Shown: one piece after another, positions 460-11,080 of the stretch | Numbering within the stretch: the first letter of the stretch is position 1 | Layout: each line of letters begins with the position of its first letter | Source: a virus | Taxonomy: Duplodnaviria; Heunggongvirae; Uroviricota; Caudoviricetes | IMG/VR virus record: IMGVR_UViG_2778261641_000016 | Direction: 5' to 3' (one strand) | Length of the DNA: 11,080 nt | Translations under genes and position numbers: made by a program | The notes under the pieces: generated by a model | What the model saw: the letters and a program-made list of their open reading frames with translations, nothing else | Told to the model about the DNA's origin: nothing | Databases searched by the model: none

Positions 460-505
460 ATTCGTAATGCGAAGGTCGTAGGTTCGACTCCTATTATCGG
501 CACCA
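460..505 (+). pseudogene. 3' half of a tRNA-Thr gene (thrW-type, anticodon loop through CCA); attachment-site remnant
   Basis: ATTCGTAATGCGAAGGTCGTAGGTTCGACTCCTATTATCGGCACCA contains an anticodon loop TTCGTAA (CGT), T-arm GTAGG-TTCGACT-CCTAT, acceptor 3' strand TATCGGC, discriminator A and CCA. The matching 5' acceptor strand GCCGATA is absent upstream, so this is a fragment and not a functional tRNA. Identity to E. coli thrW is from memory. Confidence 0.65.
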
Positions 506-1085
506 TCAACAGAAAATCCCGTAAAAACAGCATTCTTTAGCATGTTTATCTAACGGTTTGTAACTTCTGTTCTAACGTCTGTTAGCACTGGTAAACGCCT
601 TTGCGTTGTATCGGCTCAAGTATTGTACAACGTACTGGCGGGTAGTTACCAGGCTCAAGCCCGAACAGCATTAGAAATTATGCCATCCCTTGAAGCTAAA
701 AGAGTTGCCGGACTCTCTAAACACATCACTTGAACCCTTAGCGATACGTTCCGCGCTTCGTGCGGCGCTCAATGATGCTACACGTCGAGATGACGTTGCA
801 GAAAATAAACAGGCGTAATGTTGGGAAGACTAACCGGATCGGGAAAGAATCCGGCTCTGCCACGGTTTCGATCACCGGAGTATAACGATCACCTGATAAG
901 AGAACGTGCTAAGGCTTTATCCTCCCTGCGAAGGGATTACACCCTGCGGAAGCGCTACGCGCCGCCTTTTCTTATGTGCCCAACACGGCACGTAATGGTC
1001 ATCCATTATCTGCACCATTGTAACTTTCGTTGTACTGCCTCTCTGATGTACGTTGAGCGCTGGCAGATTCAGCGGAGGGGATATC

Positions 1086-1244
1086 ATGTCAAAAGCTAAC
1101 CAAAAAGCAGCCACGAAGCGCAACAACCGTAAGATTCACGCCCGTAAATTCCTGGCAACACCAGAGGGGAAAGCCTGGCTTGCTAAGAAGCAGGAAGAGC
1201 GAGAGGAAATCAAGTTGGCGCGAGCTGCAAACTTGATGTTTTGA
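1086..1244 (+). CDS. small, strongly basic hypothetical protein (52 aa)
   Basis: ATG at 1086 lies 6 nt after SD GGAGGG (1074-1079), in frame with track ORF 1053..1244. Product MSKANQKAATKRNNRKIHARKF... is Lys/Arg-rich. Stop TGA 1242-1244. Confidence 0.45.
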   Translation: MSKANQKAATKRNNRKIHARKFLATPEGKAWLAKKQEEREEIKLARAANLMF

Positions 1245-1247
1245 GAT

Positions 1248-1263
1248 GGGGCTAATCAGCCCC
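1248..1263. terminator. GC hairpin between convergent genes (possible terminator)
   Basis: GGGGCT-AATC-AGCCCC perfect 6-bp stem immediately after the stop of the 1086..1244 gene. It overlaps the stop codon of the convergent minus-strand gene and has no adjacent U-tract, so function is uncertain. Confidence 0.3.
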
Positions 1264-2029
1264 TATTGCCCCTATGCTTTTTTTCGAATCTTGTCACAAC
1301 TCTATCCAACCATTTGGGTTCTTCTCTAAGATCTGAGTAGTAACAATTTTCTGGAACCGCGTTCCAGAAAGCAGTTATTGCGTTAGCAAAATCTACAAAT
1401 TGATCTTCTGAGACATGTAAATCGTCATGGTTAGGGACAATCTGCGTGCCTCTAACATCGGTGGGGTTTGGGTAATACTCAGGATGATCAACTGATAGTG
1501 TTTGATGTGCAGGGCCGTCTCCATGCTTGTATACGTTTACCACCAAGTTACAGGCTTTTATCCTTTCTCCGTATTCGGTTCCATTGATTGTGAGGCCAAT
1601 CCATTCGAGCAAATCAATTAGCTGATGGAAAGTTAAATTCCAGATCATGGGGGTAATCAATTCTCTTTCACACCAATTACTTAGCTCTTTGATAGTATGT
1701 TCTCTTAGTTTTTTATCAAACTGATGATACATACCTGCTGTCAACGCCAACAATACGGTATTTTGCATCTCCAGAAGCGACCGTACATAATAAATTCCCT
1801 CATGATAGGCTTGCTCGTAGGCCGCCATTGGGTCATCGTTATCTTGATCAAAATACTCAGCAGTAGTCTCCAAAAACTGTTGTTCTCTCTTCTCTGCTTC
1901 TTGTTCTAAATCACCAAACTGAGAGAGAAGCCGCCGCCTTGCCTCAGAAACGTAAAATTCATGGGGTTCAAGAAAGTATGGAAGATCGGCTCTGGCTAAC
2001 CAGAAGGTGACAAAATTTTCAGTAGACAT
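1256..2029 (-). CDS. hypothetical protein (257 aa), function unknown
   Basis: Long minus-strand ORF. Preferred start is the ATG at 2029 (MSTENFVTFW...), preceded by SD GAGGAA with 4-6 nt spacing; the track start at 2056 has no SD. No motif I can assign. Confidence 0.6.
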   Translation of the reverse strand: MSTENFVTFWLARADLPYFLEPHEFYVSEARRRLLSQFGDLEQEAEKREQQFLETTAEYFDQDNDDPMAAYEQAYHEGIYYVRSLLEMQNTVLLALTAGMYHQFDKKLREHTIKELSNWCERELITPMIWNLTFHQLIDLLEWIGLTINGTEYGERIKACNLVVNVYKHGDGPAHQTLSVDHPEYYPNPTDVRGTQIVPNHDDLHVSEDQFVDFANAITAFWNAVPENCYYSDLREEPKWLDRVVTRFEKKHRGNRG

Positions 2030-2192
2030 ACATTTCCTCAATGAAGCGATAGACATTTTGAGGTTATGTTATCTTCGGTGAGGGTTAAAATCCTCAACTG
2101 ATTCAATGGAATTGTCATTTGGTTTGAAATGCGGTAAAAGAATAAAATTCGTAATGTACGCTTTGCAGAAACAATCTGAAAATGAGGTGGTT

Positions 2193-2420
2193 ATGAGTGA
2201 ACGTTACGAATTTTTACCCAATTGCTTCCTGAAAGTCTCTATCTCATCGGGTTACTTTACTGCCATCCTTGATGGTTCGCTTCCTCCTGATACCCCTGGT
2301 TCTGTTCATGCTGATAATGCCACGCAAGTCATAATCGTACTCGATTCCTACTTCCAATTGACTGACTTACAGCATCAAGGAATTGCTAATTATCTTTGCT
2401 CTCAAGGGATGGAACTTTGA
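2193..2420 (+). CDS. hypothetical protein (75 aa)
   Basis: ATG at 2193 preceded by SD GAGGTGG (2184-2190), in frame with track ORF 2106..2420. Divergent from the 257-aa gene. Confidence 0.4.
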   Translation: MSERYEFLPNCFLKVSISSGYFTAILDGSLPPDTPGSVHADNATQVIIVLDSYFQLTDLQHQGIANYLCSQGMEL

Positions 2421-2875
2421 TAGATTGGTTGCTTAATGTTGATAATCTGACCATGCTTGCCGCATGGGCTGGGTTTGCACTATCCATTTTCCAGCTATTA
2501 AAATCCAGAACAGATCTACGCCTTTTCTTAGGTTGCGATCAGTATGAAGACAGAATTTATGTTTCCAACAAAAGCGCCCATGATGTGACGATAAGTTCGG
2601 CGGGCATAGTAACCGCCAGCGGACGCCTTAGCGATTGTTCTAACGAACATTGTGATGAATACATGATCAGCCCCATGTTGCCACGCCGATTAAAAGCCCG
2701 TGATGAAATGATCTTAGAAGTACCATTCATCAATAAGGCTCACCATAATAAGGTGCATCATCGCGGAGGGGTGTATGTTACTACATCTGATGGGAAGCTG
2801 TTCAGTGATGTTAGTTGGCTGCGTCGTCGCTGGTGGTGGATATTGTCTCTGATCCTACGTGATTCCAAGCAGTGA
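2417..2875 (+). CDS. hypothetical protein with N-terminal hydrophobic (probable transmembrane) segment
   Basis: ORF in track (2396..2875) overlaps the stop of the upstream gene. Possible starts are TTG 2417 (after AGGGA at 2405-2409) or ATG 2453; the start is uncertain. Segment LAAWAGFALSIFQLL is hydrophobic. Confidence 0.4.
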   Translation: MIDWLLNVDNLTMLAAWAGFALSIFQLLKSRTDLRLFLGCDQYEDRIYVSNKSAHDVTISSAGIVTASGRLSDCSNEHCDEYMISPMLPRRLKARDEMILEVPFINKAHHNKVHHRGGVYVTTSDGKLFSDVSWLRRRWWWILSLILRDSKQ

Positions 2876-2933
2876 TTACTTATACACCGCACCAGACCAC
2901 GCTGGTTATCTGCTTGTCTTCCTTCTTCAATTG

Positions 2934-3131
2934 TTACTCCTCTTCAAAGGTCATTGTGTAGCGGCATTGCTGCGACGGCCTGAGCGTCACTGTCTCCGTA
3001 AAGTTGGCGTTGGAATAAACGCAAATCTTCGCGTTGTCTGTCTCCTGTTCGTCACTGAGAATCAGGGTTATCTGTCCGGCATTCGCCAGGACTGGCATTA
3101 CTGTCAGCGTCAGCACAAGCAAGCGTTTCAT
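2934..3131 (-). CDS. small secreted protein with Sec-type signal peptide (65 aa)
   Basis: ATG at 3131 preceded by perfect SD AAGGAG with 6-nt spacing. N-terminus MKRLLVLTLTVMPVLANA has an n-h-c signal-peptide layout. The SD overlaps the stop of the upstream recombinase gene, suggesting co-transcription. Confidence 0.55.
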   Translation of the reverse strand: MKRLLVLTLTVMPVLANAGQITLILSDEQETDNAKICVYSNANFTETVTLRPSQQCRYTMTFEEE

Positions 3132-3141
3132 GCGTATCTCC

Positions 3142-3702
3142 TTATAAGTCCATCTCATTGATCACACGGCTAACGGCTTGCTTGTCTAAATCCAGATAGC
3201 GCCTGGTGTCAGTGATGTTGCTGTGATTAAGCACGGTCATAGCTAAAGCGATGTTGTTTGCTGAACGCTTGTAGATGGCATTCCCGCCAGCTTTGCGGAA
3301 GCTGTGAGCTGATACAGTGCCATGAATACCGATAGCTTTAGCGGCCTCTGCGATCTGCTTGCTCACTTCTTCGCGTCGTACAGGCGCTTGCTTGTTCATT
3401 GATCGGTTACGCTGGCTTCTGAACACATGCACATCATGCGGATACTCAGCACGGCGACGAGCAATCATCTGCACCACTGGAGCAGGGAGAGTGAGGGCTT
3501 TACGCTTCCCTGTCTTCTGTTCTTCTATGTCAATCTCACCGTTGATCACTTCGTCGAAGCGTAACGCTACGGCATCCCCCACACGCAGTACAGCGGCTTG
3601 CATCATTAACGTAACGTCAGCTATCAGGCTCTTGTTATGAGCGTTTAGCCACTCCCTGATCGCTTTGGCTTGCTGTTCGTCTAACACTACTGCTCTGTTC
3701 AA
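3142..3702 (-). CDS. small tyrosine recombinase (catalytic domain only; FimB/FimE-size integrase/invertase, or truncated integrase)
   Basis: Product carries the catalytic signature in order: Arg in VLRVGDAVALRFDEV, HxxR in HSFRK, and HSNITDTRRY near the C-terminus. Probable start TTG at 3702 after SD GGGAGGG; the track start at 3774 is also TTG but has no SD. There is no N-terminal arm/core-binding domain. Confidence 0.65.
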   Translation of the reverse strand: MNRAVVLDEQQAKAIREWLNAHNKSLIADVTLMMQAAVLRVGDAVALRFDEVINGEIDIEEQKTGKRKALTLPAPVVQMIARRRAEYPHDVHVFRSQRNRSMNKQAPVRREEVSKQIAEAAKAIGIHGTVSAHSFRKAGGNAIYKRSANNIALAMTVLNHSNITDTRRYLDLDKQAVSRVINEMDL

Positions 3703-3799
3703 TTTACCCTCCCATAAAGACACACATCTAAACTCAACGAAACAAACAATATGATCAATTTCAGTAAGTTGCAATATAAATGATCAAAAATCGAACTGT

Positions 3800-4009
3800 C
3801 TTGTGTGTGGTAAATGGCGCGATTGCGTCCAGTGCTTAACGACCTCCAGGGCCGCCTCCAGATCGAAAATTTCTTCTCCTCTAAATATCTTGAACAAAAT
3901 CATGATGTTGGCATTTATAAACATGTGTTTGAACATTGCCAAATCCTCAACTCTGCACGAAGAACAGCGGCAACAGCGGAACATCACACTACCAATGCTT
4001 GTGTGTGGT
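3800..4009. repeat. pair of 12-bp direct repeats CTTGTGTGTGGT (3800-3811 and 3998-4009)
   Basis: Exact 12-mer present twice, 198 bp apart, directly upstream of the recombinase gene. Confidence 0.4.
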
Positions 4010-4080
4010 TATTGTCTATCTCATTGATTTAAATCTGATAAATGTAAGGTTGTTAGGCGAGGGCGGGGCTAACCTGCCTG

Positions 4081-4109
4081 TATGCACAAATTATGCGGAG
4101 TTTATGCAC
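4081..4109 (+). repeat. three TATGC(A/G) direct repeats phased at 11 bp (iteron-like)
   Basis: TATGCAC at 4081, TATGCGG at 4092, TATGCAC at 4103, with exact helical-turn spacing, directly after a GC box GGCGAGGGCGGGG (4056-4068). Confidence 0.4.
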
Positions 4110-4460
4110 TTGAAACTGAGTGTGTAATGAAATGATTAGAATGCTAATCAATTGGTGGATTTTGGCATGAAAAAGAAACATCGTTTCATTTTAGAAAACT
4201 CGTTCAGCACATTGCACCTGTCATGAAACTCCTCATTGTGGACAATGATCGCTGTGAGCCGCATGGCGCAAGGCTTTACGCAAAGTGAGTGATGGTTACT
4301 ATCTTGCTGACTATGGCAACTTTACCCATGTAACAACGGCAATCTTTACCTGTCATTTAAGATAGGCTTAGCTATGATTATCGTGTTGTTTTGATAGGAA
4401 TAACCTCTCGTTACTCTTAGTGTTGTTGCATGGATGAATCAGAGTTAGTTGGGGGCGTTA

Positions 4461-4541
4461 TACATCAAAATGATGTATAGATGCATGGGATACGCATCAA
4501 ATTGATGTATGGATCGGCAAACTACACATCAAATTGATGTT
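4461..4541. promoter_or_regulatory. array of three inverted-repeat sites CATCA-N3-TGATG phased at 32 bp (operator-like)
   Basis: tACATCAAAATGATGTa (centre 4469), cGCATCAAATTGATGTa (centre 4501), cACATCAAATTGATGTt (centre 4533). Half-site copies recur at the downstream promoters. Confidence 0.5.
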
Positions 4542-5091
4542 CTATACAAAGAGATTCTAAAAGCGATCTCTAAAAGAGAGCTTTTAGAAGATCTTGTTAA
4601 AGATTCGCTTTGCTGGCGCGTATCGCCTGGCAAGTGACCTGATTCGCCTTTGGGGGCTACTCGGTCAGCCGCTCACGACGCAGCGTAGCGCATCTGTCTG
4701 TGATTGTGCCAGGGCTTCGCCCTCGTGAAACGAGGCACAGAAGCTATGCGCCGTGTGCGCAATGTCTTTCAGCATAACTTCTGCCTGTCTTCCATGCTCC
4801 GCATTCATCCATGCAAAGTTAGCCCACGGCTAAGGATTCACTGGTCGCTGATGGCTCCAGTTCATCCAGCCTCAATCCAATACCATCACCTACTATCCTG
4901 ATAACTAACGTTATCCCTCAGTAGTTGTGCTATTGGTTTCGGGAGTAAGTGCCAGAGGGCGGCGGTAACGCAAACGGAACGCCCCAGACGCGCTGAGAGC
5001 GAATTTGAGAGGATAGGGAGGGGATTGCAACTCTCAGGCTTTCAAACCTGTTAGAAAGCGATAGACCGCGTTTTATGATGACATGAATGAA

Positions 5092-5120
5092 TTGATCACA
5101 ACGTGGAAATGCGCTATAAT
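5092..5120 (+). promoter_or_regulatory. sigma70-like promoter (TTGATC - 17 bp - TATAAT)
   Basis: -35 TTGATC at 5092-5097, 17-nt spacer, perfect -10 TATAAT at 5115-5120; points into the downstream operon. Confidence 0.5.
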
Positions 5121-5142
5121 TTGAAAGGGATTTAAATAAGTG

Positions 5143-5171
5143 TTGACATTTAAATCATTTCATGTTAAAGT
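5143..5171 (+). promoter_or_regulatory. second tandem sigma70-like promoter (TTGACA - 17 bp - TAAAGT with TG extension)
   Basis: Perfect -35 TTGACA at 5143-5148, 17-nt spacer, -10 TAAAGT at 5166-5171 preceded by TGt. The half-site AAATGATGTA (5172-5181) sits at the predicted transcription start. Confidence 0.45.
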
Positions 5172-5266
5172 AAATGATGTAGGGTAATGAAAGCATTCAT
5201 CCCGTCCTCATCTCAGGCATCCAGCCTAACGCAAACAATCCAACTTACACCGCACTATCAGGCAAC

Positions 5267-5515
5267 GTGATTAACGTTCTCCCTGGATGGTGTTTCTGTG
5301 TTTCTAACGCAAGGAGAACCAAAATTAAGTATTTTAATCCAGAACTTGTCTTCGAGGCTTTAAAGGCCGGAAGCCAGACGCGAAATGCAATAAACAGCCA
5401 GCGAGCAGCCGCACAACGGCAAGGATATTTCGAACACGCTGAAAGATTGCGTAAAGGAATCGAACTTTACGATCAATGGAAAGCTGAACAGGCTGAAACC
5501 ACCACCAACGAATAA
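5267..5515 (+). CDS. hypothetical protein; start codon uncertain
   Basis: Open frame in track from GTG 5267 to TAA 5513-5515. A strong SD AAGGAGAA (5311-5318) lies inside it but no in-frame ATG/GTG/TTG follows within 15 nt; only ATT at 5325. Confidence 0.35.
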   Translation: MINVLPGWCFCVSNARRTKIKYFNPELVFEALKAGSQTRNAINSQRAAAQRQGYFEHAERLRKGIELYDQWKAEQAETTTNE

Positions 5516-5533
5516 ACCAGAAGGAGAAACCAA

Positions 5534-5710
5534 ATGAGCGAAATCCAGAAGAAGAAACCAGCCGGAACATTCGTAAAACTGCCGGATGAAGTGTTTAGTA
5601 CTTTGTTCAAAGAGGCGCGAGCGAGAGGCGTAACAGTGCAGGAGATGTTAATTGACGCTGCAACCACACTTTCCACATCAATTAAGAACGGAGAACGTTC
5701 TACCAAATAA
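5534..5710 (+). CDS. small DNA-binding protein, ribbon-helix-helix-like (58 aa)
   Basis: ATG 5534 is 7 nt after perfect SD AAGGAG (5521-5526). Product MSEIQKKKPAGTFVKLPDEVFSTLFKEARARGVTVQEMLIDAA... has the beta-strand/helix/helix pattern of Arc/CopG-type proteins. Not in the ORF track because it is under 60 aa. Confidence 0.55.
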   Translation: MSEIQKKKPAGTFVKLPDEVFSTLFKEARARGVTVQEMLIDAATTLSTSIKNGERSTK

Positions 5711-5724
5711 GGATACACCCTAAC

Positions 5725-6465
5725 ATGACTGACATTATAAACAGTAAGGCTTTTAGTTTCACCAACACCGAAGACGCATTTAACGAATGCACCAGGATCA
5801 CCAATCTTAAAACAGGCGTAACAGAGTCCCTGTCTCCTGCTGATAAGCAGTTTTACGTCAGAATGCGCCATCGTTATTATCGCTTTGCGATAGAGTTGGG
5901 CGGTACTTATTACGATGACATTGATCAACTTGGTGCAAGTATTGGTGTCAGCTCGGCTACGGCAACACGTATTGTTGCAAAGTTGAAGAAAATCGGACTG
6001 ATCGCCAGTAATAAGCCAAAGCGCTCTAACCAATGGACTATAACGCCACTCACGCCGCAAAACTTCACCTTTGAACGTGATCGTAATGCGATGGAACGTG
6101 ATTCCGCGCCGGAATGGGTAGATTGTCTGAAACATCCCGTGTTTGGCAAAGCTAAAGAAGACGTAGCGCCAGAGGAAGAAAAACAGCAGTCAGTGCCAGA
6201 AGAGGCCAAAGCAGATCCGAAGCCGGAGAAGCCAAAGAAAATGCCTACGAAGAAACCCGCCTCCATTCCAGCTAAAGATATTAAGATAGAGCCAGTTAAT
6301 TTAAACTTTCTTGAGGGTTATCGGGATGAATGGGAGAATCCTGAAAAGAATCTACCAGTTTCACAACATCCGAAAATCAGATGGCTACTTATTAACGGAT
6401 ACCTGGACACAGAGAAGAATCCAAAACTTAAACCAATCTACGAGGAAATAGAACATTTATGCTGA
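5725..6465 (+). CDS. winged-helix DNA-binding protein with long Pro/Lys/Glu-rich linker (possible phage O-type replication initiator or regulator)
   Basis: 246-aa ORF. The N-terminal part has an HTH-like segment (DIDQLGASIGVSSATATRIVAKLKKIGLIAS), followed by a low-complexity linker (EEEKQQSVPEEAKADPKPEKPKKMPTKKPASIP). The domain layout resembles replisome-organiser proteins; assignment is from pattern only. Confidence 0.6.
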   Translation: MTDIINSKAFSFTNTEDAFNECTRITNLKTGVTESLSPADKQFYVRMRHRYYRFAIELGGTYYDDIDQLGASIGVSSATATRIVAKLKKIGLIASNKPKRSNQWTITPLTPQNFTFERDRNAMERDSAPEWVDCLKHPVFGKAKEDVAPEEEKQQSVPEEAKADPKPEKPKKMPTKKPASIPAKDIKIEPVNLNFLEGYRDEWENPEKNLPVSQHPKIRWLLINGYLDTEKNPKLKPIYEEIEHLC

Positions 6466-6920
6466 AAACGGTTATACCCAAACAATACAACGAACGTGAT
6501 CTTAACATCATCCATCTTGCCAGTTTATTAAATCCAGAAGTTGAAAGAGGTGTTGCATTCGAACAAGCGCAAGAACTTGTAGATGTTTACGCTGAGCGAG
6601 GTGAATCAAGTTACGCTAATGCTCTTGTTACGCTATTCAATGCAGCGATGAAGCCACCGAAAGAGATAGAATGTAAAATGACATCCCCACATCTTCACGA
6701 TAAGAATCTGTCTCCTTCGGAACGTCTGGTATTAATGCACCTCGAATCACTGCCATCATTAACAAATGTGAAACAGGAGTCAATAGCGATAGTGTTGGGG
6801 ATAAGTGTGGCAACTGTATCCAGTGCGATTCGCAAGCTTCGCCGCAATGATTATCTAACTACTACGTTAATCAAACCTGGTCGCGGTAAAGGATGCGACA
6901 TTACACTTACGACTAAATAA
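6459..6920 (+). CDS. hypothetical protein with C-terminal winged-helix DNA-binding motif (153 aa)
   Basis: Start overlaps the upstream stop (ATGCTGA), implying translational coupling. C-terminal region SPSERLVLMHLESL...ESIAIVLGISVATVSSAIRKLRRNDYL is HTH-like. Confidence 0.55.
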   Translation: MLKTVIPKQYNERDLNIIHLASLLNPEVERGVAFEQAQELVDVYAERGESSYANALVTLFNAAMKPPKEIECKMTSPHLHDKNLSPSERLVLMHLESLPSLTNVKQESIAIVLGISVATVSSAIRKLRRNDYLTTTLIKPGRGKGCDITLTTK

Positions 6921-7024
6921 CAACAATCGGGAAACTTTTATGATTACTGCTTTATGGTGGTTCACCATATTCTATGGCGTTTACGTTATAACCAGACAAG
7001 GAGTTTCCCCTCTACGAGGAATGA

Positions 7025-7408
7025 ATGGGACGAAAAGAACGAAGTAACCTTGTTAGAATCGAAAAAGCCACACGCATCAGCAAACGTAAATACACCTCTT
7101 CTCTACAAGACCTCGCACGAGAGTCTATTCCTGGTGAGATGGTGACAACTATTAAAGAATATCCCGCAGTAGTACCAAATGGATTAGAGTTTGAACTATT
7201 GCAGGATGTTCTATCGTCAACGGATAACGTTTATTACAAACCACGACGCAGACGCGAATATATTATAGATAGTAGCCATCTCAAGAAATGGCAAATAGCA
7301 GGATTTGAACATTACGCCGATTATATTGGGTATTGTCAAACCTGGGGGCTATCCCAGCACACACAAGAGTTTGATATTCTCTTTGACGACAAGGAAAACA
7401 ATGAATAA
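7025..7408 (+). CDS. hypothetical protein (127 aa), basic N-terminus
   Basis: ATG 7025 is 5 nt after GAGG (7016-7019). Its stop overlaps the next start (ATGAATAA). Confidence 0.5.
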   Translation: MGRKERSNLVRIEKATRISKRKYTSSLQDLARESIPGEMVTTIKEYPAVVPNGLEFELLQDVLSSTDNVYYKPRRRREYIIDSSHLKKWQIAGFEHYADYIGYCQTWGLSQHTQEFDILFDDKENNE

Positions 7409-7739
7409 TAAAACTATGGACACAGTGAACACCCTAATTAACTCTTTCCACGACAACTGGCATTTACCAACCTTACAGCTTGTTAATGCAGCGTGGCGTG
7501 AGAGAACGCCCTCCGCGCTTCTGGAAGCGGTGCAATACACTGAACAGGCAATCACTGCCCTTGAACATCTGCAAACGTCTGTAGCTCGTTTGGTGCAGCG
7601 TGACGGCAGTTCGATCACACCAGAAGAAGCGTGGCGTGTAGCTAATGACCTTGAGGAGCTTGCTTGCTCTCTGCAATACATCACCGTTGAACTCGGAGAG
7701 CTTTCCATCCAGATCGCGGAAGAATGCGCCATAACATAA
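7401..7739 (+). CDS. hypothetical protein (112 aa)
   Basis: ATG 7401 is 5 nt after AAGGA (7391-7395), in frame with track ORF 7305..7739. The longer track start has no SD. Stop TAA 7737-7739. Confidence 0.55.
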   Translation: MNNKTMDTVNTLINSFHDNWHLPTLQLVNAAWRERTPSALLEAVQYTEQAITALEHLQTSVARLVQRDGSSITPEEAWRVANDLEELACSLQYITVELGELSIQIAEECAIT

Positions 7740-7754
7740 AAGTTACTAAATGTC

Positions 7755-7783
7755 TTGACATTATGTGCTATATGTGTCATAAT
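7755..7783 (+). promoter_or_regulatory. near-consensus sigma70 promoter (TTGACA - 17 bp - TGtCATAAT)
   Basis: Perfect -35 TTGACA at 7755-7760, 17-nt spacer, extended -10 TGtCATAAT (7775-7783). It starts 16 bp after the stop of the upstream operon. Confidence 0.6.
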
Positions 7784-7789
7784 GAGTTA

Positions 7790-8334
7790 TAGGGTAAGTA
7801 TTCGAATCACTTCACCCTCGTATGTCAATACGCACTCCTTGAGAATGCCGTTCCCATAGCGGCATTCTCTCCCTCTGAATGCTATTTCTGAAAGTGTTGG
7901 TTCTTTGTCTTGTTTGTTCCGAAGGAATGCGCGGGATGTAATATCTCGTTGTGTTGGTATTGCATCGCAATCACCGCGCATCTCCGACTTTTTCAGAAAG
8001 GGCATTCGCTCTTTGCTCATTCATTCCGTTAGGATGAATGTAGTCAGACTGAATAAACGCCGTCAGCGGTAGTTACGTTCAGGCTGGCAATCTCTTATTA
8101 CTATTCCAGTGGTGATATTGAGATTCCATTCCCACTTCTCGCCATGACAGAAGGGCTTCTGTTTTGAAGTGGGAGCAATGACGGGCGATCCTACTTCTGT
8201 TATTCGTAACAGTTGCGCCCTTCATTTTTTCAAGAAGCCATTCTTTAACATCATAATCCTCCGAAACGAAAATGATTTTAACAGAATGCTTTCTAACAAG
8301 GGCATATTCTCCAGGGGCTTAATCGCCCCTTTTT
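7790..8334 (+). ncRNA. candidate ~545-nt non-coding leader transcript (promoter to intrinsic terminator); speculative
   Basis: No plus-strand ORF of 60 aa or more between the promoter and the terminator. Contains a perfect 10-bp stem hairpin (7841-7850 / 7860-7869). Only short ORFs without credible SD. Confidence 0.3.
8313..8334 (+). terminator. rho-independent terminator
   Basis: GGGGC-TTAATC-GCCCC stem-loop (8314-8329) followed directly by TTTTT (8330-8334). Confidence 0.6.
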
Positions 8335-8405
8335 AACAATCTGCATGTAACACTTCCGTTATCAATGGAAGGATAAACGCAGTTATAACGCGAAGGAACA
8401 ACACA

Positions 8406-8621
8406 ATGTTCTTAATAAACAATCGCGACCGAATCCTAAAATACAAATCCGAAGTGATTCAAGTTAATCCTGAGTTAATAGCTAAAGTGGCTGAAATGGC
8501 AGGATGTACCGTTGAAGAAATAGAAAAAGCTGTAGACCAGTATTTCCCTTCTGAGGACACACCTCAACTTAGTATGCAGGAACGGATCGCAATCAAATCC
8601 AAGGAAATCAAACAACAATGA
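8406..8621 (+). CDS. small hypothetical protein (71 aa), first gene of the head operon
   Basis: ATG 8406 is 7 nt after SD GAAGGAA. Its stop overlaps the start of the next gene (ATGA), implying translational coupling. Confidence 0.55.
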   Translation: MFLINNRDRILKYKSEVIQVNPELIAKVAEMAGCTVEEIEKAVDQYFPSEDTPQLSMQERIAIKSKEIKQQ

Positions 8622-8977
8622 TTGTAGACCTAACCGAACTTTTCCCAATTCGTAAGAGTTTCACTGACGTATTGAGCTACGCCACTGATTCTTTTGCAGT
8701 CGTAGAAGGCCGTGTTTTCGACCTGCCAGCAGATATTGAATGCGGCGATGTTATCGGCGCTGATGGCGCTCTATACACCTCCGGCGATGATGCCTTTGTG
8801 GTGGTAAGTGATTTCGTGAGTGCTGGCGACGGTAAAACCGTGAATGTCCTACGTGCGCCTAATGTTGGTAGCTTCGTAGCACTGAAAGCCGACAACCTGC
8901 ACGCAGCTAATCACGCCGCAGCTATCACCACGCTCGAATCCAAAGGGTTCGTATGCCGTCCATTCTTCACCTCTTAA
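8618..8977 (+). CDS. probable phage head decoration protein (119 aa)
   Basis: Gly/Ala/Asp/Val-rich small protein encoded immediately upstream of the major capsid gene, the same position as gpD before gpE in lambda-like heads. Assignment rests on position and composition, not on recognised sequence identity. Confidence 0.5.
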   Translation: MIVDLTELFPIRKSFTDVLSYATDSFAVVEGRVFDLPADIECGDVIGADGALYTSGDDAFVVVSDFVSAGDGKTVNVLRAPNVGSFVALKADNLHAANHAAAITTLESKGFVCRPFFTS

Positions 8978-8993
8978 TCAAGGAAGATAAATA

Positions 8994-10025
8994 ATGAGTA
9001 AAATCGCAATTGGGCGTGAGATGGTCGATTTAGCGCCAATCTTCCAGGCTCTGCCGGAACGTAACTATCTTATGAATGCCCTCGACCTATTCGACGGGGT
9101 AGGTGTTCAGAATCCGAAAGTGGTGGTGACACAGCTTCTGGATGATAACTACAGCCTGTTTAACACCCCGCAGAGCCGTTATTCATCAAACCACGACACT
9201 ACCGCGCGTCAGAATGGCAAAGAATACCTTATCGAGATTCCTTGGTTTGCAAGGGAAGATGAGTTTAAACCTGTAGACGTACAAGGCCGCAGAGTGCAGG
9301 GAACGGACTACGAGCAAACCGTTACCGACCTGTACACCGAATACACTGGCAAACATAAGATTGCTTATCTGCGTACCCGTGAGTCTTACCTGGCCCGTGC
9401 TCTGTTCAAAGGTGAAGTTTATACGCCTGCAACTGATGACCTACTGATCTCTTATGCTGAACTGTTCGGTGTGGTGCCAATGACAGCCAGCGTGAGCACA
9501 GCGACAGCGGCACAGGATTTTGATGCGATCTTAGACAAAGTTCAGGCTGCCGCAGGTGGATTGGCTGGACAGATTGAACGAGTGATCGTATTCGCTAAAC
9601 CTGCTGCATTTAGCCAGATTCGCTTCTCTGACAGTATGTCTAAGGCGTTCCAGTATGTAGCGCCATATGACGACCGTAACCTATTCTACCAGCGTCACGA
9701 GCTTCTCCCTGGTGTTAGTACGTTTAGCCTACCTGGTGCGCCTATCGACATTGTTAAAGTGACAGATCCGCTGATCCTTGCACAGATGCCAGATGATGCT
9801 GACATGGTGGCGGTTCCGGTGTTCAGTAAAGGCACAAATGCTTATCAGAACATCTACGGCGCTGCCTCTGGTAACTTTGCGCTGATCGATGCTGCACCTG
9901 CTGAATACTACTCTTGGGGCTACCTGAGCGAGCGCGGCGATGCTTACCACGTTATGCACGAAAACAGCGCATTACCAGTGAACCATGCGTTAGGTATGCA
10001 GGTGAAGATCACCATCACTGCTTAA
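8994..10025 (+). CDS. phage major capsid protein, lambda gpE-like (343 aa)
   Basis: ATG 8994 after AAGGAAG. Length matches the 341-aa lambda E protein, and local blocks (ALFKGEVY, VIVFAKP...F) resemble E-family blocks as I recall them. It follows the decoration-like gene. Confidence 0.75.
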   Translation: MSKIAIGREMVDLAPIFQALPERNYLMNALDLFDGVGVQNPKVVVTQLLDDNYSLFNTPQSRYSSNHDTTARQNGKEYLIEIPWFAREDEFKPVDVQGRRVQGTDYEQTVTDLYTEYTGKHKIAYLRTRESYLARALFKGEVYTPATDDLLISYAELFGVVPMTASVSTATAAQDFDAILDKVQAAAGGLAGQIERVIVFAKPAAFSQIRFSDSMSKAFQYVAPYDDRNLFYQRHELLPGVSTFSLPGAPIDIVKVTDPLILAQMPDDADMVAVPVFSKGTNAYQNIYGAASGNFALIDAAPAEYYSWGYLSERGDAYHVMHENSALPVNHALGMQVKITITA

Positions 10026-10088
10026 TGAGCAAGCGGGAGCCTGACCCGCTGGAAATAATCAGGCTATTGAATAGGGCGTGTGAACGTT

Positions 10089-10121
10089 GGGAACATCTCC
10101 CCAGTGTTCCCGCCCTTTTTT
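10089..10121 (+). terminator. probable intrinsic terminator after the capsid gene
   Basis: GGGAACA-(9 nt loop)-TGTTCCC stem (10089-10111), then GCCC and TTTTTT (10116-10121). Confidence 0.45.
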
Positions 10122-10144
10122 ATTTCCAGAATGAGGAAAGATAA

Positions 10145-10342
10145 ATGCAAGTGATTGTAAAAAGCGCGGGGCTTCACCTCGCCGTAAATGCTGAAACAGC
10201 AGAAGAGTTATTAAATCTGGCGGGAGTGTGTCGTGTGCTTGAAATAGATCACGGTCATCTACGTCAGTTATTACATCGTGGGCGTAGTGTATCAGATGCA
10301 CTTAATTATCTGGTGAGTAAAAAAGGCGGTGGCGATGCTTGA
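10145..10342 (+). CDS. hypothetical protein (65 aa)
   Basis: ATG 10145 after strong SD GAGGAAAG. Its stop overlaps the start region of the next ORF. Confidence 0.5.
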   Translation: MQVIVKSAGLHLAVNAETAEELLNLAGVCRVLEIDHGHLRQLLHRGRSVSDALNYLVSKKGGGDA

Positions 10343-10799
10343 GATTAATACAAGTAAGATCGTCAACACCGTAACTTTCACCGTTGACAAAGGGAGTATT
10401 GCAGAGGCTAAGGCCGCAGCGGATAACCTTCAAAAGCACTTCCAGAAAATAGCCGATCCCAAGATTCGCTTCCAGGATCTGAAGCAGCGCAGACAGAAAG
10501 CCCGTCAACAAGCCGATGATGCACGTTTTAATGATAAGCCTCGTGATACGAAGGAAATGAAAGCCCAACGTGCGGCGGAGAAGCAGAAAGCCAGGGATGA
10601 AAAGGCCAATCTGAAAGCGAAGCAGCAGCTACAGAAGCGCCAAGAGACAGCCGAGCTTAAACTTCGCCATGCAGGGCTACAAGTGTCAGGAATTAAAGGT
10701 AAATACGGGCTTGATCCTAAATCTCAGTATGAAGCGTTACGTTATATTCATCAGCAAAGCGAAGAGTTTGCGAAAAGGGTATTAACTTTCGCAGCCTGA
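10329..10799 (+). CDS. hypothetical protein, highly charged Lys/Arg/Glu/Gln-rich central region (156 aa)
   Basis: Track ORF overlapping the upstream stop (start ATG 10329 or 10335). Its last ~8 codons are read out of frame from invertase-homologous DNA. Confidence 0.5.
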   Translation: MAMLEINTSKIVNTVTFTVDKGSIAEAKAAADNLQKHFQKIADPKIRFQDLKQRRQKARQQADDARFNDKPRDTKEMKAQRAAEKQKARDEKANLKAKQQLQKRQETAELKLRHAGLQVSGIKGKYGLDPKSQYEALRYIHQQSEEFAKRVLTFAA

Positions 10800-11080
10800 C
10801 CGACAGCATAGATACGTCTTCACCAATGGGACGCTTTTTCTTCCATGTCATGGGCGCACTTGCAGAAATGGAAAGGGAGCTGATAGTCGAACGTACCAGG
10901 GCGGGATTGGCTGCGGCTCGTGAAGAAGGGCGAATAGGTGGGCGTCGATCAAAGCTAACTGATGAACAGTGGGCGCAGGCAGGCAGGTTGATTGCAGCAG
11001 GTGAATCACGACAGCGTGTGGCATTAATTTACGATGTTGGGATATCGACGCTATATAAAAAATTTCCGGCAACCAGGTAA
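10772..11080 (+). pseudogene. serine DNA invertase (Pin/Gin/Hin family) C-terminal fragment, lacking the catalytic N-terminus; runs off the window end
   Basis: Translation EKGINFRSLTDSIDTSSPMGRFFFHVMGALAEMERELIVERTRAGLAAAREEGRIGGRRSKLTDEQWAQAGRLIAAGESRQRVALIYDVGISTLYKKFPATR closely matches the C-terminal half of e14 Pin as I remember it. The frame is closed by TGA at 10730-10732 and no serine-nucleophile N-terminal domain exists in any frame upstream. Confidence 0.65.

Follow-up and report, generated by a model that had tools for sequence, protein, structure and literature searches.

RepA_N initiators are mainly found on theta-replicating plasmids of Firmicutes, and their iterons consist of direct repeats that are semi-palindromic and converge on a poly-A tract (PMC7145576). 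Initiators of this type are reported to be rare in Gram-negative bacteria (Barth et al., PMC7145576); as far as that paper and literature searches reveal, a single Gram-negative example has been characterised, the RepA of the Vibrio cholerae PLE, the N-domain of which is known as structure 4RO3 (Barth et al., NAR 2020, PMC7145576). Experiments on PLE RepA revealed that it binds to iterons in a non-coding region and drives replication of the satellite only during ICP1 infection (PMC7145576). The initiators of PICIs and P4, on the other hand, possess helicase and primase activities and are sufficient for autonomous replication (PMC7145576).

The window, i.e. the whole stretch of 11,080 nucleotides analysed here, carries at 5267-7739 what is probably (about 0.75) the early operon of an island of Enterobacteriaceae that resembles phage satellites and integrates at tRNA sites, with a PLE-RepA-like initiator, orf3, as its central gene. 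This agrees with the initial annotation as far as a replication module of a small mobile element and an initiator-type 246-aa protein are concerned; besides its N-terminal winged helix and linker, the protein has a C-terminal domain. Six RefSeq coding sequences are annotated in the region in nine E. coli chromosomes, with 100% identity. In related elements (designated by locus numbers, L001 to L019), the island extends over ∼13 kb, with a tRNA gene at one end and a tyrosine integrase of 404-415 aa at the other. The element has the properties of a satellite in the PICI/PLE sense: it is an integrated island of small size that has an integrase, a replication module of its own and few structural genes, and is devoid of lysis and packaging enzymes. 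Of phage-like structural genes, the relatives have only those for a major capsid protein and a 614-aa 'tape-measure-like' protein, joined in some cases by one for a Dit-like protein. The window copy is a truncated one without the integrase or the distal part of the 614-aa gene, and may therefore be inactive. For one Klebsiella variant alone, the index of a contig collection lists 396 blocks. No member of the orf3 family was detected on plasmids in a search of a plasmid collection, hence autonomous replication is not implied.

The open reading frames are located on the plus strand where they had been placed earlier, apart from the corrections given below, and are tightly packed and partly overlapping as described. 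The overlaps read from the sequence are 7 nt (ATGCTGA) between orf3 and orf4 and 8 nt between orf5 and orf6, while the gaps are 18 nt between orf1 and orf2 and 14 nt between orf2 and orf3. The start of orf1, initially taken as GTG at 5267 (82 aa), is the ATT codon listed in the table, preceded by AAGGAG at 5311-5316 with a spacer of 7 nt. At the homologous position, L002 and L004 have ATT, L006 has TTG, and L009 and L011 have ATG; no canonical in-frame start exists further upstream in L002 and L004. The extent of orf6 has likewise been revised from 7305-7739, and the 35-aa mini-ORF between orf4 and orf5 had been overlooked; its peptide is retained in L001, L003, L006 and L015 despite differing nucleotides and is absent from L002. 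Synonymous changes exceed non-synonymous ones in orf1 (17 vs 3, window vs L004), orf4 (33 vs 14, window vs L002) and orf2 (8 vs 5), which supports their coding nature. The genes orf5 and orf6 evolve faster, yet their reading frames are intact in every relative. Searches of Pfam, PHROG and further families gave no match for orf1.

Features of the early operon and its surroundings, with positions in the window
Feature	Position	Strand	Description
Iterons (three)	4446..4541		32-bp spacing; semi-palindrome around A-tract, ACATCAAAWTGATGT at 4462-4476, 4494-4508 and 4526-4540
AT-rich dyad adjoining iterons	4541..4603		69% A+T; 29-nt arms; GATC at 4565 and 4590
Conserved non-coding block	4604..5010		∼400 nt; accompanies every DUF6945-type module
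Promoter-like site P1	5092..5120	+	TTGATC-17-TATAAT
Promoter-like site P2	5143..5171	+	TTGACA-17-TAAAGT, extended -10 TG
Leader hairpin, then U-rich tract	5252..5305	+	terminator/attenuator-like; -21 kcal/mol, z -3.0
orf1	5324..5515	+	63 aa; ATT start
orf2	5534..5710	+	58 aa; predicted ribbon-helix-helix-like small DNA-binding protein
orf3	5725..6465	+	246 aa; putative PLE-RepA-like replication initiator
orf4	6459..6920	+	153 aa; HTH_36 winged helix
Mini-ORF	6940..7047	+	35 aa; one hydrophobic helix and basic tail; overlaps orf5 start
orf5	7025..7408	+	127 aa; part of conserved core common to capsid module
orf6	7401..7739	+	112 aa; all-helical; part of conserved core
Near-consensus promoter-like site	7755..7783	+	TTGACA-17-CATAAT, TG; conserved in relatives
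Terminator-like hairpin and T5	8314..8334	+	conserved in 5/7 relatives

The AlphaFold model of orf3 confirmed the N-terminal winged helix and the Pro/Lys/Glu linker noted earlier. The N-domain (∼13-140) is a winged helix of DUF6945/RepA_N type with a DnaD-NTD-like fold (pLDDT 80-95 for residues 13-140) and ends in the invariant motif PEWVDCLKHPVFG at 129-141. It is followed by a disordered acidic, Pro- and Lys-containing linker (141-192, pLDDT < 40) and a type-I C-terminal domain, the model of which is of low confidence. Pfam DUF6945 (PF22182) scored 27.9 bits on orf3 (E 2.5e-6), 0.1 bit under the gathering score of 28; close relatives bear a precomputed PF22182 assignment, and 115 of the 119 remote relatives match the model. 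The profile of these 119 relatives matched 4RO3 with an E of 1.2e-18, and the RepA_N structures 5KBJ, 4PQL and 4PT7 with ∼1e-3 over the whole N-domain. Alignment of the close orf3 family with 4RO3 by hhalign gave a probability of 88.8% and an E of 2.5e-6, and the 4RO3 sequence itself scores 83 bits on Pfam DUF6945. The emergence of 4RO3, the N-domain of PLE RepA, as the top structural and the top sequence-profile match of orf3 refutes the earlier view that no product bears the signature of a known satellite. As judged by the sequence profile of its N-domain, orf3 is a member of the PLE-RepA/DUF6945 family. Pfam RepA_N (PF06970) gave no match to orf3 at E ≤ 1 and was matched by only 2 of the 119 remote relatives, and the kinship with RepA_N is at the superfamily level only. 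The PHROG matches of orf3 are replication initiators (5e-10 and 4e-5), tblastn recovered phage proteins that carry the annotation replication initiation or protein O, and in BFVD its neighbours comprise DUF6945 proteins as well as replication proteins and replisome organisers.

The three repeats upstream of the operon have the form of cognate iterons as defined in PMC7145576, being direct repeats with semi-palindromes that converge on a poly-A tract, and the same design was observed in six related loci. The ACATCAAAWTGATGT pattern gave 6 strand-matches as compared to 0.12 expected, and 0 of 200 shuffles reached 6; all the matches fall within 4462-4540 and none inside the orf3 gene. One extra 32-bp iteron copy is present in L001, and an equivalent array of other sequence occupies the same place in L002, L004, L011, L015, L018 and L019. 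The array may constitute the binding sites of orf3 and the core of an origin, with the adjoining dyad as a putative DNA-unwinding region; the conservation of the dyad is 85-100%, L019 and the Klebsiella L011 included. The conserved block beyond it has no match in Rfam and is lacking in the modules of helicase type (L003 and L006); it could either belong to the origin region or form a structured RNA.

Palindromic sites would equally suit a repressor. A transcriptional regulatory or immunity module, with orf3 and orf4 as MarR/ArsR-type and orf2 as RHH repressors acting on palindromic operators to silence the element, would be in line with the source names (ArsR, MarR or winged helix-turn-helix), with weak Pfam matches to MarR, HTH_Crp_2 and Fe_dep_repress, and with near-consensus promoters that are each followed by a terminator-like hairpin and suggest tight regulation. 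Such a role is nevertheless unlikely, since the MarR match (20.9 bits) falls below the cut-off of 24.6, an N-domain joined through a 50-residue disordered linker to an exchangeable C-domain is unlike a MarR or ArsR dimer, and sister elements exchange the whole block for a helicase-type module. The iterons, moreover, lie 550-700 bp from the operon promoters, and are therefore not placed as operators of these promoters. Nothing was found in support of the immunity function proposed initially; there is no repressor-type gene, and the ArsR/MarR names given by NCBI are generic winged-helix labels. As MarR/ArsR repressor candidates, orf3 and orf4 were rejected on the family cut-off and on the lack of a compact single-domain dimer. 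Databases list orf3-type proteins as 'ArsR/MarR regulator' or 'DUF6945'.

The assignment of orf3 as an initiator is consistent with the manner in which iterons and N-domains vary together. The window and Klebsiella L011 combine the recognition helix SSATATRIVAKLKK with the iteron ACATCAAAWTGATGT, L002 and L015 combine SKRTALRCLEDLKQ with GTGACAAAATGGCAC, L004 combines KYDAASDALKKLQA with ATACGGGAAAAACCCGTAT, and L018 combines SDVGTVSSAIGKLEA with ACACGGGAAAAACCCGAC, while a very different N-domain in L009 is accompanied by 22-bp GGGTCGGTCA repeats. L019 is an exception, as its helix SPATATRIVAKLRK is nearly that of the window but its iterons are CCTCAAATTGAGG. Across the sequences of nine related elements, the type of iteron hence changes along with the class of the orf3 N-domain, though not exactly, owing to L019. 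This association favours the link between the operon and its upstream repeats that had been proposed earlier, as far as the array at 4446-4541 is concerned. Between the window and L002, the iterons of which differ, orf2 and orf4 are still ∼90% identical.

The N-domain classes and the C-domain types of orf3 recombine independently; two unrelated C-domain types occur in combination with several N-domain classes, and a third type is found in L009. In L003 and L006, a helicase-type module takes the place of the entire segment from ∼4365 to 6919, comprising the iterons through orf4. The region is thus not the single operon unit described at first: orf1 to orf4 together with the iterons form a swappable module, and orf5 and orf6 are inherited with the capsid module.

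The Pfam model HTH_36 matched orf4 with 34.6 bits (cut-off 25) over residues 82-133; it also matches 49 of the 119 DUF6945 relatives, which indicates that the two models overlap. The N-domain of orf4 (residues 1-64) is nearly invariant, in contrast to the variable winged helix (82-133). The gene follows orf3 with a type-I C-domain in 4/4 cases (window, L002, L015 and L018) and with a type-II C-domain in 0/3 (L004, L011 and L019). This pattern suggests that orf4 is a co-inherited partner of the type-I C-domain of orf3, with which it may be in contact. Apart from the winged helix, searches of Pfam, PHROG and further families revealed no similarity of orf4 to lambda P, DnaC or any other loader.

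The last observation also bears on the proposal of a lambda O/P-type module, with orf3 as a Phage_rep_O initiator and orf4 as a P-like helicase loader. The same domain logic applies, in that an iteron reader at the N-terminus is connected by a flexible linker to a C-domain matched to a downstream partner; phrog_391 ('replication initiation O-like') was matched at 3.7e-5, the distant BFVD neighbours of orf3 include a protein that has the N-terminal domain of lambda GpO (E 8e-3), and some phage homologues are annotated as protein O. On the contrary, orf3 has no Phage_rep_O match in Pfam at E ≤ 1, its gene contains no iterons, all three being 1.2 kb upstream, and its best matches are DUF6945/PLE RepA and RepA_N. 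A lambda-type module is therefore very improbable, and the 'phage O-type' label of the initial annotation has been replaced by the DUF6945/PLE RepA family.

For the 58-aa orf2, the RHH character claimed earlier is weakly supported. Alignment with Arc/Mnt/CopG by hhalign placed residues 12-46 in the expected register (probability 22%, P 1e-3); Pfam, NCBIfam and PHROG gave no match. The protein is 86-93% identical among elements with different iterons, and going by these sequences it is not the iteron reader.

Both of the tandem promoter-like sites claimed earlier are present ahead of orf1. P1 is retained in about half of the modules (only the window, L001, L015 and L004), and P2 in every DUF6945-type module as well as in the helicase-type L006, none being scored in L003. 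The leader hairpin ends ∼6 nt upstream of the ribosome-binding site of orf1. In the homologous hairpins of L004, L002, L011 and L009, the outer stem GCACU.../...GGUGU is constant, whereas both sides of the inner stem are altered; a clearer U-run is present in L002, L011 and L009. At the other end of the region, the promoter-like site at 7755..7783 opens the leader of the capsid operon and marks the downstream boundary of the finding. This leader of ∼550 nt ends with the hairpin at 8314..8334, located 70 nt before the first gene of the capsid module; a minus-strand ORF within it is not conserved, hence the leader is non-coding.

The position of orf5 and orf6 directly before this near-consensus promoter, with a non-coding leader ending in a terminator before the capsid genes, raises the question of whether one or both are late-gene regulators outside replication, for example Q-like antiterminators. 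The two genes, the promoter, the leader and the capsid genes form one inherited block irrespective of the replication module, and both the promoter and the terminator are conserved. Such a role is doubtful, as neither protein is homologous to an antiterminator or activator in Pfam, PHROG and further searches, the structure model of orf5 is unreliable (pLDDT 56), and the arrangement is merely analogous to lambda Q, pR' and tR'. It would concern the last two genes only and is compatible with orf3 as the initiator. The products of the region are not all homologous to those of a well-characterised prophage early region.

On the basis of these results, orf3 is proposed to be a replication initiator of the PLE-RepA/RepA_N kind. 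Its winged-helix N-domain would bind as a dimer to the 32-bp-spaced A-tract semi-palindromes at 4446-4541, and these iterons together with the adjoining AT-rich GATC stretch, in the long non-coding region 5' of the operon, would fire as the origin of the element. The disordered linker and C-domain would recruit further factors; in the window variant, the recruited factor may be orf4, the invariant N-domain of which is inherited together with the type-I C-domain. The presumed role of orf2 is that of a small RHH-type regulator of the operon, one that does not read the iterons, and orf1, the mini-ORF, orf5 and orf6 would be accessory early proteins, of which orf5 and orf6 form the core preceding the capsid operon.

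Over its C-terminal 390 aa, the 614-aa protein has 40% identity with a protein of the lytic myoviruses Phapecoctavirus/Justusliebigvirus, and this match is the sole lead on a helper phage. Speculatively, and with low confidence, the element could correspond to PLE in enterobacteria, as a family of tRNA-integrated satellites that is undescribed yet widespread (E. coli, Klebsiella, Enterobacter and Citrobacter) and has its own major capsid protein. Its RepA-like initiator, unable like PLE RepA to fire alone, would borrow its replisome from a virulent helper. This helper might be a 150-kb myovirus of Phapecoctavirus type, which has a virion-protein homologue in common with the element. The early and late operons would be held by leader terminators read through only on infection, with orf5 and orf6 as late antiterminators.

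The mechanism itself is not new. The present analysis assigns a homologous initiator, along with recognisable iterons, to an island family of many clinical Enterobacteriaceae, and offers a better annotation for proteins named 'ArsR/MarR regulator' or 'DUF6945'. The initiator and iteron specificity classes provide a natural series for the study of DNA recognition, and E. coli a tractable system for how satellite initiators of RepA_N type recruit the replisome, a question left open by PMC7145576.

In comparison with known systems, lambda O, ori-lambda and P are alike in outline, by analogy, in the dimeric N-terminal winged helix, the dyad-symmetric iterons, the AT-rich neighbouring stretch and the flexible linker, as well as in a C-domain matched to the product of the next gene and in N- and C-domains shuffled among relatives. 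The element differs in that its putative origin lies outside the initiator gene and the partner orf4 is a winged-helix protein unlike P. The Pri-Rep/ori modules of PICIs (SaPIs, EcCICFT073-type) and P4 alpha resemble it as exchangeable initiator-specific modules of small integrated satellites with an early rightward operon, and sister elements bear a helicase-type alternative at the same position; orf3, like PLE RepA, has no helicase or primase family match in Pfam, PHROG and further family searches. The RepA_N plasmid initiators of Firmicutes (pSK41 and pTZ2162 RepA; 4PTA, 4PT7, 4PQL, 5KBJ; PF06970) share with orf3 a DnaD-NTD-like winged-helix N-domain for A-tract-centred semi-palindromic iterons, binding by orf3 being predicted, and a lineage-specific C-domain. 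They differ in that orf3 has no direct PF06970 match and no counterpart in the plasmid collection, and that its iterons lie in the upstream non-coding region of a chromosomal island.

There is also a close resemblance to PLE. The N-domain identity between orf3 and PLE RepA is ∼20-23%. Tyrosine recombinases and tRNA sites are used here as against the large serine recombinase of PLE, orf1 and a gene for an RHH-like protein precede the initiator, the initiator is coupled to the partner orf4 in the window variant, and the element has its own major capsid protein and the 614-aa protein common to Phapecoctavirus-type phages. Both are chromosomal phage satellite-like islands with an initiator C-domain unrelated to anything known, and both carry semi-palindromic iterons around an A-tract in a long non-coding region between leftward and rightward gene clusters, ∼1 kb 5' of the cluster of the initiator.

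The product of orf3, the 246-aa protein of the operon at 5267-7739, belongs to the lineage of PLE RepA, the replication initiator of the Vibrio cholerae phage satellite PLE, i.e. to the RepA_N proteins, and not to that of lambda O. Its first matches were all weak: the Pfam family DUF6945 (27.9 bits, cut-off 28), two replication-initiator families of PHROG (5e-10 and 4e-5), and proteins of Rheinheimera phages that carry the annotation replication initiation or protein O. All 230 close homologues of orf3 come from Enterobacteriaceae, under the names ArsR, MarR or DUF6945, and profile searching retrieved only 199 relatives among 1.84 billion representatives. When 119 relatives were scanned against Pfam, DUF6945 was recorded in 115, HTH_36 in 49, DnaD_N in 6 and RepA_N in 2. 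Single-sequence PDB searches with orf3, orf4, orf5 and orf6 gave no match; the structure 4RO3, which is the N-domain of V. cholerae PLE RepA (PMC7145576), was found solely by a profile of remote orf3 relatives, and its own sequence scores 83 bits against DUF6945. The initial annotation had seen no signature of a known satellite in these proteins; the link to PLE through 4RO3 and DUF6945 does exist. A tblastn search of plasmids with orf3 gave no match. In the AlphaFold model of orf3, the N-domain (13-140) is confident, the linker (141-192) disordered and the C-domain poorly defined. The motif PEWVDCLKHPVFG terminates the folded N-domain, immediately before the linker. It is invariant or nearly so in all N-domain classes and with both C-domain types, and may be where a host or helper protein docks.

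The iterons bound by PLE RepA lie in a long non-coding region, some 1 kb upstream of the repA-containing gene cluster, and RepA together with that region is sufficient for replication only during ICP1 infection (PMC7145576). The iterons of RepA_N proteins are direct repeats, semi-palindromic in form, that converge on a poly-A tract (PMC7145576), and the iterons of the window fit this description exactly, as ACATCAAAWTGATGT is present in three copies with 32-bp spacing and nowhere else in the window (0.12 expected by chance). The earlier proposal of a replication module with an initiator tied to upstream repeats stands, except for the likening of the initiator to the O type. The dyad adjoining the iterons is conserved, has 69% A+T and carries two GATC sites; 2 sites in 70 nt represent no clear enrichment of GATC at the putative origin. 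The near-identical copy in MS6192 (L001 13102-14064) has one extra 32-bp iteron unit as compared to the three of the window, and is otherwise 99.7% identical.

Related elements display the same array design in the same place with other iteron sequences, and the iteron sequence varies in step with the N-domain class of orf3, a rule that is imperfect. The window and the Klebsiella locus L011 have iterons and N-domain in common, and their C-domains are unrelated. An inner CAAAATG is common to the iterons of classes with the wing motif SNQW, and CGGG-A5-CCCG to those with the wing motif YEW. The exception is L019, in which the helix is almost as in the window and the iterons are CCTCAAATTGAGG. Window and L002 differ in their iterons, yet their orf2 and orf4 remain about 90% identical, so neither of these proteins reads the iterons. 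In Klebsiella variants (L011 7826-8494, 8549-8750), the non-coding region contains a Dam-type methylase gene immediately upstream of the iterons, and two iteron types stand side by side, three of the TGTCAAAATGGCAC type and four of the ACATCAAAATGATGT type.

Features of the window and iteron classes of the related loci (window coordinates unless another locus is named)
Feature or locus	Position	Strand	Sequence	Remarks
Short tyrosine recombinase, 186-210 aa	3142-3774	-		Catalytic domain only; core of every element; transcribed away from non-coding region
Iteron array	4462-4540			Adjoined by dyad
Non-coding block, ~400 nt	4604-5010			Between iterons and operon promoters
P1	5092-5120			Promoter-like
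P2	5143-5171		TTGACA-17-TAAAGT, TG	Promoter-like
orf1 start	5324	+	ATT	AAGGAG seven bases before it
orf3 motif	6109-6147	+	PEWVDCLKHPVFG	orf3 residues 129-141
Mini-ORF, 35 aa	6940-7047	+	MITALWWFTIFYGVYVITRQGVSPLRGMNGTKRTK	Unannotated; one hydrophobic helix, basic tail; overlaps orf5 start
orf6 start	7401	+		
Near-consensus promoter	7755-7783			After orf6; followed by leader (region 7755-8405)
Terminator-like hairpin	8314-8334			Closes leader
614-aa protein	10329-10799; L001 19069-20913			RefSeq TolA; phrog_16051 'tape measure', 2.5e-98
Window, Klebsiella L011			Iteron ACATCAAAWTGATGT	orf3 recognition helix SSATATRIVAKLKK
L002, L015			Iteron GTGACAAAATGGCAC	orf3 recognition helix SKRTALRCLEDLKQ
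L004			Iteron ATACGGGAAAAACCCGTAT	orf3 recognition helix KYDAASDALKKLQA
L018			Iteron ACACGGGAAAAACCCGAC	orf3 recognition helix SDVGTVSSAIGKLEA
L009			22-bp GGGTCGGTCA repeats	orf3 N-domain very different

The non-coding block that separates the iterons from the operon promoters is kept in every module with a DUF6945-type initiator and is absent from the helicase-type modules (L003 and L006). In its diverged copies the hairpins are altered on both sides and insertions of 50-80 nt occur. RNAalifold recorded some compensatory pairs, the + and - strands fold about equally well in an eight-sequence alignment, and no Rfam family was found at E <= 1; the block could be a structured RNA or a part of the origin.

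The tandem promoters postulated for the operon were recovered as two promoter-like sites. All DUF6945-type modules retain P2, as does L006, with none scored in L003; P1 is retained in about half of the modules. The interval between the promoters and orf1 holds a hairpin, after which comes a U-rich run; the outer stem of the hairpin is conserved and its inner stem alters on both sides among relatives. The promoter after orf6 is followed by a conserved non-coding leader of ~550 nt, closed by a terminator-like hairpin just before the capsid-module genes. Because a promoter and then a terminator-like hairpin precede both operons, both look gated after initiation; that orf5 and orf6 act at these leader terminators is a speculation. 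A minus-strand ORF of 77 aa in this leader (7787-8020) was considered as a hidden repressor gene; it carries stops or frameshifts in L006 and L015 and is not a gene.

The operon of six closely packed + strand ORFs is real, with its boundaries corrected at the starts of orf1 and orf6 and the mini-ORF added. The same six CDS are present in RefSeq in nine complete E. coli chromosomes, 100% identical across the operon stretch, five being named hypothetical and one 'helix-turn-helix domain-containing'. Direct reading of the sequence gives overlaps of ATGCTGA for orf3/orf4 and ATGAATAA for orf5/orf6, and short spacers. Substitutions relative to diverged copies reveal purifying selection, with 17 synonymous and 3 non-synonymous substitutions in orf1 (window vs L004), 33 and 14 in orf4 (window vs L002), and 8 and 5 in orf2; orf5 and orf6 are faster-evolving, yet their ORFs are retained in all relatives. 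The mini-ORF peptide is conserved in L001, L003, L006 and L015 despite different codons, and is absent in L002.

The AAGGAG before the ATT start of orf1 is perfect and the ATT is conserved (5311-5326). At the homologous position L002 and L004 have ATT, L006 has TTG, and L009 and L011 have ATG, and no canonical in-frame start lies upstream of the ATT in L002 or L004. E. coli rarely uses non-canonical starts of this kind, infC and pcnB being examples, and they can render translation sensitive to IF3 levels. The orf2 product could be aligned, weakly, with Arc/Mnt/CopG in RHH register, and orf1, orf5 and orf6 gave no informative match in Pfam, PHROGs, NCBIfam, PADLOC, PDB or phage genomes. The AlphaFold model of orf5 is unreliable (pLDDT 56) and too poor as a search query, tblastn of orf5 against phages gave no match, and PDB profile searches with orf5 and orf6 returned noise or designed coiled coils only. 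PADLOC found no defence system and NCBIfam nothing specific; nothing was found in support of the 'immunity' function once suggested for this module.

Only 460-10774 of the window matches the element that carries the operon, and this span also matches the nine E. coli chromosomes; the ends, with a tail-fibre assembly gene at the left (1-459) and a Pin-type recombinase at the right (10775-11080), belong to an e14-type prophage. At the right junction, which is L001 position 30189, the gene for the 614-aa protein is cut at 10799 and joined to the Pin-type recombinase gene, which in MS6192 is found 10.7 kb further along; the window copy has thus lost the distal part of the element and is truncated, the large integrase being missing. 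Intact relatives adjoin tRNA-Thr, tRNA-Leu or tRNA-Gly and consist, in order, of cargo genes, the short tyrosine recombinase, 1.5-1.8 kb of non-coding DNA, this operon, the second promoter with a leader of ~600 nt, a 71-aa gene, a 119-aa gene, the Phage_cap_E major capsid gene, a 65-aa gene, the 614-aa protein, sometimes a Dit-like gene, and a tyrosine integrase of 404-415 aa. One genome (L017 1-20750) carries two elements in tandem, a capsid module with integrase being followed by a second complete copy. Multimer resolution or help in excision are possibilities for the short recombinase; the idea that it forms an invertible promoter switch with the non-coding region was dropped, as no supporting flanking inverted repeats were found.

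The element showed no portal, terminase or lysis genes, and this gene content gives it the make-up of a phage satellite. Nucleotide searches gave no phage match, the only plasmid matches were to a 190-490-nt piece of the late module, and no phage protein is closely related to the capsid protein. The C-terminal 390 aa of the 614-aa protein share 40% identity with a protein of Phapecoctavirus and Justusliebigvirus, which are lytic myoviruses of 150 kb from E. coli and Klebsiella; this similarity is a lead to a possible virulent helper. No literature description of this element family was found, and the element matches no family found described. The mechanism is known and the host element is new and uncharacterised; the more novel questions lie around the finding and not in it, namely the nature of the element and its helper, the 400-nt block and the leader terminators.

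Alignment of the window with L003 and L006 covers 3063-4365 and resumes from 6919 on, so that orf5 and orf6 go with the capsid module. In these two loci the stretch from the iterons through orf4 is replaced as a block by a diverged orf1, an RHH gene and a P-loop helicase-like protein of 482-485 aa, with a 94-aa winged-helix protein also read in L006, which identifies it as an exchangeable replication module. Free recombination around the invariant motif combines the N-domain classes of orf3 with two C-domain types. An overlapping orf4 follows every type-I C-domain (window, L002, L015, L018) and no type-II C-domain (L004, L011, L019). In the orf4 protein, which has only 11 homologues, the N-domain (1-64) is nearly invariant and the HTH_36 winged helix varies; judged from these sequences, its N-domain would contact the type-I C-domain of orf3. 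Although orf4 has no homology to P, such a pairing would follow the same logic as that of lambda O and P.
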